Source of the DNA: Paraspadella gotoi
Taxonomy: Eukaryota > Animalia > Chaetognatha
Direction of reading: 5' to 3'
Assembly: GCA_051294375.1 (NCBI GenBank)
Contig: CM119263.1
Location: 5,844,382 to 5,908,381, forward strand
Length of the DNA stretch: 64,000 bases
The position numbers and the translations under genes were made by a program. The notes under the pieces were generated by a model. That model saw only the letters and a list, made by a program, of their open reading frames with translations. It had not been told where the DNA came from and ran no database searches. Within the stretch, counting starts at the first letter, position 1. Each line of letters starts with the position of its first letter. This document shows positions 46,601 through 49,600 of this stretch, piece by piece.

Positions 46601-49600
46601 TTAACTTTTACTTATTTCATATTTAATTTTGTAATGAGAAGAGGGATGTTTGTTTTGTTCTGGAAATGGAGAGGGCAGGAAAGCTTTTCTATTGAATGAA
46701 TAAAAAAATAGTTATTTTGGCTGTAACGATTTAAAACAATGAATTTGTTAAAAAATCTTTTAAGCAGAGTTTCTTAAGCAAAGGCTTAGCCGCTTCATTG
46801 GAGGATGCATGTGCACATTTGACTCGATAATGGATGAAACCTTCAGCGGAGAGAACCTAGAGCAATATCTGCGAAAAAACTTTATCGTCGATGGCGAACC
46901 TTCTACCCTCGCCGTGCATATTTGCTCCATGATATCCACATCGGCTATGCTCAGGTACTTACATGTGCTTCCATGTTCTTACATATTGATTGGATTTGGC
47001 TTCAAAAATCCCGTTTGAAATAATTCCAGAATCTTCTTCCTCTTCCGGAATCCTCTTCCTTAATCCTTTCCTCTGTTTCCGGGTTTCATTCATCTGTGAT
47101 GATACTAAGACTTAATAAGAAGAATAAATTTAGTTATAACTGTAGTCGGGCATTGCCTAGGTTCACCCCGCCTATAAGCATGACACTTCAGTCGCGACCC
47201 GGTTGCTCACTGAGTAAAGCCATCAGCTCATGACCACTAGGTAGTGGCTTCAATCCCAATCGGTACCTACCTACCCTGCGGGAAGCGTGAAGATGACTGT
47301 AAGCCGCCTTGGGGGTGTGACCTCAAAACCCTCAAGCCTAGTTCCAAGCCCAGGACCCGTTCCATGGCTGCTAGAGAGGGTTAAAGAAGTTGCGGATACA
47401 ACTCTTCAGCCCCACTTAGCGCCTTATCCACATAACTACCATTTGCTGACTTTGCCTAAATTTTTATTCCTCTCATTATATTATTTATATATTTTAATTG
47501 CCTACACTTTTGAGTCTTATCACTTTTTTCAAATCAATTTAAGCTTGCGTGAAATGTCTGATGATTGGGACGAAAAAAAAGCACTGAGTTTTTTCAAGCT
47601 GTTTTACAACTGGACAAAGATAGGGGAGCGCTTTGTGTATGAACAGACAGCAGAAGCAACTACTTCTGCCGTGGCCCGCCAGTGGCGCTCGGCCGCCGAC
47701 TTTGGACGCCTCTTTGCCTACCTCACTCCGATCGAGATTACCAACGTCTCTTTTCTCTGGCGTCACGCAGCACAAATCGGGTTAACATGGTCCTTTCAAG
47801 ACATGATCTTCAAGAAGGTCCGATTGTGGGCAAGAGAGATAGAAGGGAGAGAGAGAGAGAGAGAGAGAGAGAGGAGAGAGAGAGAGAGAGAGAGAGAGAG
47901 AGAGAGAGAGAGAGAAGAGAGAGAGAGAAGAATTACCAGATTTTGATGACAAAATTAAAAACCCGATTCTTTCAGCTCTTCCGCAAATGCCCGGAACTCA
48001 TGGCCAAATTGACAGGAGACGCGACCATGGATATTGAAGAAGCGCTCAAAGTTTGTCCCTGAGTAAAAAAAAAAAACAACATTATTTTAAAGAAATTTAA
48101 AGGCTTCTGATTCGATTTAGTCGGAGCGCCTTAACCGACATACGGCGGAGTTAATTGTACACAAGGAAGACATCATTGCTGCTCTCTTTTATTATTCCTC
48201 TTTGCAAAACAAACTGGTGGATTTTTTCATCTTTCTCTCCTCTTGGGATTACTCCTTTCAAGAAGTCGATGCGATGCTAAGATTAAGTTATGGCGCCATC
48301 AATATGTACCTTCCTTTCGAGGATCTAGACTCTGTGCAGGTAAAGCGAAAAAAAAAAGATGGACGCCAAAGGCATTGATAAGTGAGAGCGATCGGGAGTG
48401 AATGGAAAGAAAGTTGTAAAGGTGTACATGATTGACGGTGTAGAAAATGTTTTTGTATTTTTTATACCCGTGGAGACGAAACGTCTTCGTATCGCCCGTC
48501 GAAATTTTTCAACATGAGTATTGCCGAAGAATTTGGAAGAAAAAGTCGTATTTAATATTTAGACTTTATTTCATTATAAAAAAATCCACCGGAAAACTCT
48601 TAAAAACGGAGTTTCCTCCGGGCGAAACGAAATTAGTGAGATTTCAAATGAAAACTAAAGTCGAAAACGATATCTCTCTTGGAATATGGGTTTTACCTAA
48701 ATGACCGCGAAAAATATTGGCCCATTTGAAAACTGGCCTAGGAAAAGTCAAGATGAAGAGGCTGGTTTTACAGGGCGCCACACCCGCAGCGGTGTCACCT
48801 CGTGGCGACAGCGAGACAGCATGTTCATGTAGTCCAGAGCTTTGGATCTGGCAGTAGGCCCATGCCTACAGGGGGGTTACCCGGTCCATCCCACTTTCTT
48901 CATGACAACCTCAGGGCTCGAACCAGGGACGCACATTGGGATGGTGCATTAGTCCACTGAGCCACTGAGGCGCTGCGAAAGAAACAGCTTTAATCCATCT
49001 GTGATGATAGGACCACCAGAAAGAGACAGTGGCGAGGCGTAACATCTTGTACAGACAGATTGAATTTTAATTCAAAGACAAATACTTTCCGGAAGAAAAA
49101 AAAATAATAAATAATTATTTACGCGTGACATCAATTAGTTTATTTCATGTAATTTGAATGAAAGACATTGTTTAAACCTTTTTTAATCCGCTCCCTACAG
49201 CAAATGGGCCAACATCTTCATGCGTCTTGGAGAAAATTCTATTCGATGATTGGAAGAAAATATAAAACTTTTCTCAGGAGGACGAATCAGAAGGAAGAAG
49301 ATGAAGAAGAGGAGGAATTGAAGGAAGAAGTTGATGAAGGTACCATATTTTTAGTTACGCCGGTCGGTCTGTCCGTCGGTCTGTCTCACTTACGTTCAAA
49401 ATATTCATAACTCGCCTAAAGTTGGTTGCTCATTCGTTAAGACATCCTCAAATCCTCAAACTATAAAGAATAAAAGACGAAATTCCGATGCAGCGCGCGT
49501 CATAAATACACTGGCTAAGAAAGTTACTCCGGAGCAACACATGGGATAAACCCATCTTGTTTATGAATCTTCAGTTTTTTTCTCTTCTCTTTTATCATTC

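Follow-up and report, generated by a model that had tools for sequence, protein, structure and literature searches.

Solo LTRs of a repeated, non-coding element in Paraspadella gotoi carry a predicted P5-type twister motif

The window analysed here is a stretch of 64,000 nucleotides from the chaetognath Paraspadella gotoi (contig CM119263.1). It contains two related insertions, copies A and B of family 2, which are read as solo long terminal repeats (LTRs) of a repeated, non-coding LTR element. The element is likely a Helenus-like terminal-repeat retrotransposon in miniature (TRIM) transcribed by RNA polymerase III (Pol III). Its LTRs carry a predicted twister ribozyme of type P5, with a P2 stem of 3 bp containing a bulge and a palindromic P1 of 6 nt, as in a second family (family 1) of the same window. 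The probability of this reading is put at roughly 0.6. Copies A and B themselves are decayed, and they are probably impaired. Their limits, with target site duplications (TSDs), are as follows:

47141..47432, plus strand: family-2 solo LTR copy A, TG..CA ends, TSD TAAC at 47137-47140 and 47433-47436
20918..21177, plus strand: family-2 solo LTR copy B, TG..CA ends, TSD AACT at 20914-20917 and 21178-21181

Both LTRs had been placed here by an earlier reading made from the letters alone (the sequence-only reading), and its boundaries hold. The TSDs, whose absence from most copies was to count against the element, are 4 bp long and identical on both sides in 2/2 copies (TAAC/TAAC and AACT/AACT); the two 4-mers have window frequencies of 0.003 and 0.004. 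The proposed fit to a Gypsy-type integrase also stands, as ends of the integrase type are present and Gypsy-type mobilisation is graded likely. The two copies start with TGTAGTCG, end with CCACA and are 77.5% identical over 280 columns (E 1e-59). Contigs of four public runs in Logan were collected at copy A (3339, 387, 382 and 3982 contigs). Sharp contig ends are seen at 47141 (117 and 129 contigs) and at 47432 (49, 13 and 44 contigs), and the flanks beyond these termini are heterogeneous and AT-rich. Family 2 is highly repeated and dispersed, since 382-3982 contigs per run cover copy A and show sharp ends at both termini, with unrelated flanks. Contig depth is used here as the share of a letter at a position and never as copy number. 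A weak match to a C/D-box snoRNA at 47091-47145 (27 bits, under the gathering score) overlaps the 5' TSD of copy A and is probably due to chance.

The twister-type core can be followed letter by letter in copy B, and in a decayed form in copy A:

21042..21107, plus strand: copy B twister-type core in P5 order, from the register parse and the cross-family alignment
21042-45, plus strand: copy B P2', reading G-A-G-U
G21046/A21047, plus strand: copy B GA, directly before T1'
21048-50, plus strand: copy B T1' GGA, pairing perfectly with UCC of L4
21051-56, plus strand: copy B palindromic linker CGGCCG, 6 nt
21057-59, plus strand: copy B UAA, with the predicted cut between U21057 and A21058, then A21059
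21060-89, plus strand: copy B P2 GCA (21060-62), T2 GC (21063-64) and P3 (21065-89)
21090-21107, plus strand: copy B P4/L4, with two private mismatches at 21106-07
47285..47354, plus strand: copy A twister-type core in P5 order, decayed, predicted cut 47300/47301

UAA-NNN-GC, the P3 hairpin and the loop UUCCAAGC lie where the sequence-only reading had put them. The rest of its written motif is a composite: CCTGG is found only in B and CCAGG only in A, and B has GGCC in place of GACY. In copy A the upstream GA-GGA is masked by four substitutions (47291, 47294, 47296 and 47298), which leave an A-C mismatch in T1 (47291) and a non-palindromic linker, UGACUG; there is a further A-C mismatch in P4 (47340). 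These changes are private to copy A. The pairing letter of B makes up 90-99% of contig depth at 47291, 47294, 47296 and 47298, and the pairing letter at 47340 does likewise. The breaks in P4 of copy B are also private, as the pairing letters make up 98-99% of depth at 21106-07.

Family 1 is present in the window as three LTRs, at 46.3, 59.2 and 59.6 kb. One is a solo LTR and two belong to a single element, which has a primer-binding site (PBS):

46289..46522, plus strand: family-1 solo LTR flanked by AGAG on either side; twister core as in family 2
59195..59796, plus strand: family-1 two-LTR TRIM, 5' LTR to 59429, 3' LTR 59567-59796

The core of the family-1 solo LTR (G46409, linker GGCGCU, U46420, L4 at 46452) forms 13/13 of the tallied P2, T1, T2 and P4 pairs. 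The TRIM has a Trp-type PBS at 59431, a non-coding interior of ~137 nt and a polypurine tract (PPT), and its two twister cores lie 367 nt apart. A twister-type motif is found in both LTRs of the family-1 TRIM and in both family-2 solo LTRs.

Copy B and family 1 contain, in P5 order, every conserved element listed for twisters in a published table (PMC8501958 Table 1). UAA and GA are invariant in 5/5 LTR copies. A twister-class motif with a loop like that of P1 twisters had been claimed for family 2, and the L4 loop U-NNN-A-A-G-C is indeed found in 5/5 copies, with 3-5 of the 5 P4 pairs formed in each. T1/T2 complementarity, the lack of which had been named as grounds for rejection, was checked and is present: T2 (2 bp) forms in 5/5 copies, and T1 forms 3/3 pairs in B and two family-1 copies and 2/3 in A and one family-1 copy. 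The proposed P2 has 3 bp with one bulged base in P2', where twisters usually have 4 bp immediately ahead of GA; three copies form 3/3 of these pairs and two form 2/3.

Comparison of the two families carries most of the argument. The five motifs align without gaps over columns 1-33 with identical spacing, and 89% of cells in the alignment pair, against 23-48% in slid controls. Between the families, 9/22 pairs change on both sides (two in T1, one in P2, two in the linker, three in P3 and one in P4), and the covariation score was reached by 0/500 shuffles. Phage and metagenome motifs were left out of these pair counts, as their MAFFT alignment was out of register. UAA, GA, T2 and AAGC do not vary across the two families. 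T1 is UCC/GGA in family 2 and CCG/CGG in family 1; P2 opens with G-U in copies A and B and with C-G in family 1. The majority lines of family-2 loose contig ends commonly have A in place of the G of this pair, and UAA-ACC-GC is a common family-2 state there (109-127 contigs in the two deepest runs; an unphased majority with agreement ~0.7). No variant of >=2% is listed at T2 or L4 in three runs, in a table which misses changes near clipped ends.

An exact upstream T1 strand with two P2 pairs arose in 0.8% of 200,000 shuffles for copy B and in 1.3% for the family-1 solo LTR (45 nt shuffled, post hoc); when a self-complementary 6-nt linker was also required for B, equally post hoc, the number was 0. 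The P4/L4 pattern shared by the copies occurs five times in the window, always within these LTR families (0.04 matches expected); it was derived from these same copies and is no independent test. On this comparison of sequences, both families are read as P5-type twisters with a bulged 3-bp P2, forming one common module under different tRNA-like heads.

The sequence-only reading had instead assigned family 2 to a P1-type permutation different from that of family 1, with TGYT-A-GA-GRG-GGTT as the catalytic strand:

47365..47383, plus strand: downstream GA-GRG-GGTT segment, where P2 fits badly; probably incidental

That family 2 is a P1-type twister built on the downstream GA-GGG is highly improbable. 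Directly before this GA, P2 forms 0/3 pairs in A; in B it forms 1/3. P1 would open with a G-G pair. A P2 of 3/3 is reached only with a 2-nt bulge in B and a 5-nt insert in A, and no single offset serves both. It is true that UCC can pair with the downstream GA-GGG if one G-U wobble is allowed, that GGG holds 95-97% of depth at 47377, and that a 4-bp P1 can form with one bulged G. However, such a GA-T1 strand arises in 9-14% of shuffles. In a viral control with at least 214 unique hits to the L4 pattern, among the matches listed, a perfect 4-bp P2 stands directly before GA in 120; eight have 3 of 4 P2 pairs, one has a clean 3-bp P2, and 68 are weak or unparsed. At L188:86-168 a phage twister of type P1 combines a clean 3-bp P2 with both P3 and P5 hairpins. 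The suggested covariance-model check does not favour type P1: Rfam reports no twister, and a model made from 34 viral P1 twisters recognises nothing in the window but the L4 hairpin. The upstream register, by contrast, is perfect and collinear with family 1. Repeated acquisition of differently permuted modules, which had been suggested, is unneeded because the families share one P5-type module, collinear and identically spaced. The downstream GGCTGCT, whose alternative pairing was thought to compete with T2, pairs in this way with probability 0.00 in folds of both LTRs.

Several results weigh against the P5-type reading. Rfam twister models give no match at E<=1 in the window or at E<=10 in 400-bp stretches around each copy; the Rfam scans give no hammerhead match either. 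A model made from 53 phage and bacterial P5 twisters places all five LTR copies among its top seven window hits, but with low scores (20.6-8.0 bits) and with alignments that miss the proposed register of P2. In the same model, 22.8 bits is reached by L020, a coding locus which has the L4 hairpin alone. This ranking is weak evidence because the L4 hairpin alone can reach that score and P2 is misaligned. A loose twister descriptor does not discriminate (10 hits, 6.5 in shuffles). In nearest-neighbour folds of the real, decayed copies, the twister register and the linker-linker pairing both have probability 0.00, and free two-strand folds favour pairings other than linker-linker. Each covarying change counts as a single event because only two lineages are compared. 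The combination of a 3-bp P2 and a bulge has no clean phage example and one weak case among the phage and bacterial matches listed. Two-LTR members of family 2 were sought, and none was seen in the window or in the Logan contigs; the 3' loose ends of family-2 contigs have no dominant PBS. An anti-ribozyme helix formed from the LTR tail was also considered and set aside (p 0.11-0.58 in 5/5 copies).

A chance cluster of GC-rich hairpins within a repeat, not related to twisters, is scarcely credible. It would explain why the loose descriptor stays at background and why fold z-scores of the five motif regions lie between -1.0 and +1.1, but not why all conserved blocks are ordered and spaced, why they are compensated across families, or why near-identical blocks occur in phage P5 twisters.

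It is also improbable, though less so than chance, that the motif is a twister-derived relic which entered the LTR of a TRIM with a fragment of a short interspersed nuclear element (SINE) or non-LTR element and no longer cleaves, the element being an ordinary Helenus TRIM. The missing Rfam match, the non-canonical P2, folds without the active structure and the broken state of both family-2 copies would fit a relic. Sources for one exist: twisters occur at the 5' ends of RTE non-LTR elements (PMC8501958; an unpublished remark in PMC7761336), and SINE insertion has been proposed by Kojima as the origin of such LTRs (PMC10886601). On the other hand, UAA, GA, T2 and L4 are invariant in two families despite different heads and unrelated P3 sequence; T1, P2, P3 and P4 are compensated across the families; and the variant table of the three runs, with its gap near clipped ends, lists nothing at >=2% for T2 or L4.

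The short P2 has natural parallels. High-throughput tests found imperfections of P1, P2 and P4 to be tolerated, and changes of the catalytic A and G and pseudoknot mismatches not to be (PMC11662667; PMC5113685). Among the viral and metagenome matches listed, 13/57 strict parses of P5 twisters have a 3-bp P2, and five of these 13 read GGU-GA...UAA-ACC-GC, as does L021. The latter is a GC-rich metagenome contig with three P5-type twisters of short ACC/GGU P2 within 1 kb (678-739, 1021-1083 and 1573-1638). The bulged 3-bp P2 is found in a repeat from one animal-like assembly at eight metagenome loci (L004, L005, L018, L019, L023, L024, L035 and L039), which has a P5-type motif with a full P1 hairpin ~170 nt before a common 3' end. 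Four copies fit the motif: L024, L018, L023 and, through a compensatory pair, L039. The motif is partly broken in L005, L019 and L035, and L004 has a deletion at this place. In L019 the P4/L4 hairpin lies in tandem copies. The 54 metagenome loci comprise four bacterial-type P5 twisters, the eight copies of this repeat and chance matches; 0/54 are homologous to the LTRs described here. A scan of prokaryotes gave 0 matches, and a viral scan for the collapsed CGGCCG linker gave 11 loci, none with the L4 loop.

The linker is 6 nt long in both families (CGGCCG in family 2, GGCGCU in family 1), with one pair closing a palindromic tetraloop; among the matches listed, phage P5 twisters have a P1 hairpin of 14-26 nt at this place. 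Only 1 bp of P1 is possible in cis, and 6 bp can form between two copies. The 6-bp homoduplexes of the two linkers are calculated at -10.7 and -8.3 kcal/mol. An imposed two-copy structure lies ~19 kcal/mol below two imposed monomers when the linker is intact, and 2.5-6 kcal/mol below without an intact linker. The central linker pair flips from G-C to C-G between the families, although the adjacent bases are unable to pair in cis. There is a precedent in amphibian hammerheads with a one-pair stem and a palindromic tetraloop, which cleave as dimers (PMC7229834). It is tentatively proposed, at less than even odds, that the motif is an obligate double twister in a Pol III-transcribed animal LTR retrozyme: the two LTR copies would share a palindromic P1, so that the precursor would be cut twice, while both solo-LTR transcripts and a ligated circle with one copy would be stable.

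Further points count against the dimer step: a palindrome is also expected from any P1 hairpin that loses its middle, and twister P1 is conserved but can be dispensed with, its deletion causing no loss (PMC5408937). A rather unlikely alternative is that the same P5-type twister cleaves well as a monomer, with one C-G pair and a tetraloop or with no P1, and that the palindrome is the remnant of a deleted hairpin. Dispensability of P1 (PMC5408937; PMC11662667) is in its favour, and two phage P5 twisters among the matches listed (L484 and L524) open P1 with CGG and close it with CCG, so that loss of the middle would give CGGCCG directly. A remnant does not account for a length of exactly 6 nt in both families, nor for a central pair which flips yet stays complementary and matters only between two copies. 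A twister active as a monomer would also re-cut a ligated circle.

Upstream of the core, each family-2 LTR has a promoter-like region:

47173..47275, plus strand: copy A TATAA and tRNA-like head with decayed A and B boxes; box letters intact in most contigs
20950..21028, plus strand: copy B TATAA at 20950, A-box-like sequence at 20981, B-box at 21007; B-box in the loop of a long hairpin

TATAA lies 32 nt inside both LTRs (47173 in A, 20950 in B). The presence of a TATAA and of a tRNA-like head different from that of family 1, as claimed earlier, is borne out. In copy B the A-box-like sequence is TGGCTCATTG (20981) and the B-box is GGTTCAATCC (21007); both are decayed in A. TGGCT and GGTTC are present in the family-2 boxes, and the YGG of box A is absent. 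The head of copy A contains an 18-nt segment (~47224-47241) which is absent from copy B. The extra segment of the family-2 head has a CAT triplet in a loop-like position. ARAGORN predicts 0 tRNA genes in this head. The family-2 head may be Met-like and that of family 1 Gly-like. The part after the head may resemble the central CORE domain of a CORE-SINE; one string search of a supplement gave 0 matches. No T4 run occurs in the LTRs of either family or in the interior of the family-1 TRIM. This absence would fit Pol III read-through, but in stretches this short it is not significant.

A further LTR-like stretch may bear on how the element moves:

38649..38959, plus strand: LTR-like stretch with Pol II-type signals, TATAA 38783, AATAAA 38823, Trp-type PBS 38942

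Its last ~27 nt match the end of the family-2 LTR (26/30, E 0.015) and the rest is unrelated. The PBS agrees with the published Trp PBS in 15 of its first 16 letters. Plant retrozymes likewise have only the LTR end and PBS in common with Gypsy (PMC4918200), as 38914-38957 does here. No partner LTR or open reading frame (ORF) was recognised for it in the window, inspection of 38600-47100 by eye showed no recognisable gag/pol ORF, and three ORFs at 45.5-48.1 kb have no Pfam match. The sequence-only reading called for an autonomous Gypsy element with the Trp PBS and the LTR termini; this stretch is a candidate remnant of a Gypsy-type helper lineage. A third tRNA-like head, with sequences like A and B boxes, is seen at 42617-42769, and a partial Trp-type PBS follows ~50 nt later; no twister loop was seen there, and it is possibly a plain Helenus-type remnant.

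In the proposed life cycle, Pol III would initiate at the tRNA-like head within the 5' LTR and continue into the 3' LTR. Each LTR twister would then cut between U and AA; pairing of the two palindromic linkers into a common P1 of 6 bp (the 'double twister') would probably make cleavage more efficient. A host ligase of RtcB type could circularise the RNA of unit length (367 nt in family 1), and with one motif copy the ligated RNA would be stable. Copying by a Gypsy-type reverse transcriptase from a tRNA-Trp primer would follow, and the integrase would leave 4-bp TSDs. Solo LTRs may arise from recombination or from short cDNAs.

Helenus TRIMs (TRIMp3; Kojima 2024, PMC10886601) are similar in being short non-coding LTR elements whose LTR holds tRNA-derived A and B boxes, in their 4-bp TSDs of the animal type and in their many solo LTRs; PBS and PPT are shared by family 1, and the Trp-type PBS is as in Helenus-2_SyJa and Gypsy-32_NVi (PMC10886601). 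The published tRNA-like part lies near the 3' end of the LTR, usually followed by a T-rich run (PMC10886601), whereas here it is in the 5' half, followed by the twister domain, with no T4 run. The word 'twister' occurs 0 times in the accessible text of the Helenus paper (PMC10886601). No twister domain was seen by eye in published Helenus LTRs in parts 1, 6, 7 and 8 of the 11 parts of its supplement, and six twister-loop strings gave one unrelated match there, not counting any that line wraps may conceal.

Plant LTR retrozymes (Cervera 2016, PMC4918200) are also non-autonomous LTR elements with a ribozyme in each LTR (here predicted), 4-bp TSDs, PBS and PPT, solo LTRs and short terminal boxes in common with Gypsy. 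They differ in having type III hammerheads, tRNA-Met, no tRNA-derived head and demonstrated circles (PMC4918200); the present element has a twister-type motif, an animal host, a tRNA-like head and proposed circles. Compared with type P5 twisters (PMC5408937; phage and bacterial examples L320, L331, L429 and L021), the order and identity of conserved blocks agree, as do the ACC/GGU-type 3-bp P2 subclass, the L4 U-NNN-AAGC, T1 and T2. The collapse of P1 to 6 nt without an inner loop, the bulged base in P2', the long P3 and a score below Rfam detection are differences. Dimeric amphibian hammerheads, which belong to non-LTR retrozymes (PMC7229834), share the short palindrome-capped stem, but are of another ribozyme class and form tandem repeats without LTR, PBS or PPT; dimer dependence is demonstrated for them (PMC7229834) and predicted for the LTR twister. 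The T-variant twisters of Perere-3 (RTE) in Schistosoma also have a weak or absent P1 and an animal retroelement as carrier, but they have P1 order at the 5' end of an autonomous non-LTR element, in contrast to P5 order inside an LTR (PMC8501958). The accessible parts of the open-access literature, including passages of PMC6765202 and PMC5680766, yielded neither an LTR element with a twister nor a twister that acts as a dimer. The element is apparently an undescribed, twister-bearing, Helenus-like animal counterpart of LTR retrozymes.

Animal DNA in the window is represented by exons of an ABCC transporter, whose best matches are in diverse animals at 47-57% identity, and by an ORF with EGF and Ig domains. 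The ABCC/MRP transporter gene occupies 55709-63627 (minus strand); the two-LTR TRIM of family 1 sits within it, in opposite orientation and between coding stretches. The EGF/Ig frame is 1431 codons long (24104-28399, minus strand), with EGF and Ig domains and then a likely membrane region; a partial duplicate with 96% identity lies downstream at 30176-33485. An inverted repeat of 1.3 kb (5057-6297 / 7810-9041, 82% identity) is rich in GAC and GA repeats, and further dispersed repeats are found at 40971/45525, 44722/62481 and 15243/17180.

Few biological roles have been assigned to twisters; LTR retrozymes have been described from plants, with hammerheads, and Helenus has been described without ribozymes. 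The present element unites a tRNA-type promoter, an LTR life cycle of the Gypsy type and a predicted twister, kept in two families with different heads, in a form which escapes Rfam. If the double-twister reading is true, the element would provide both the first twister that depends on dimers and the first TRIM with a ribozyme in animals, and the P5 twister with a bulged 3-bp P2 would be a subclass of animal retroelements overlooked by Rfam. It opens the question of whether Pol III-transcribed TRIMs may replicate via self-cut circular RNA, and whether twisters may be gated by dimerisation through a palindromic stem, as hammerheads are.

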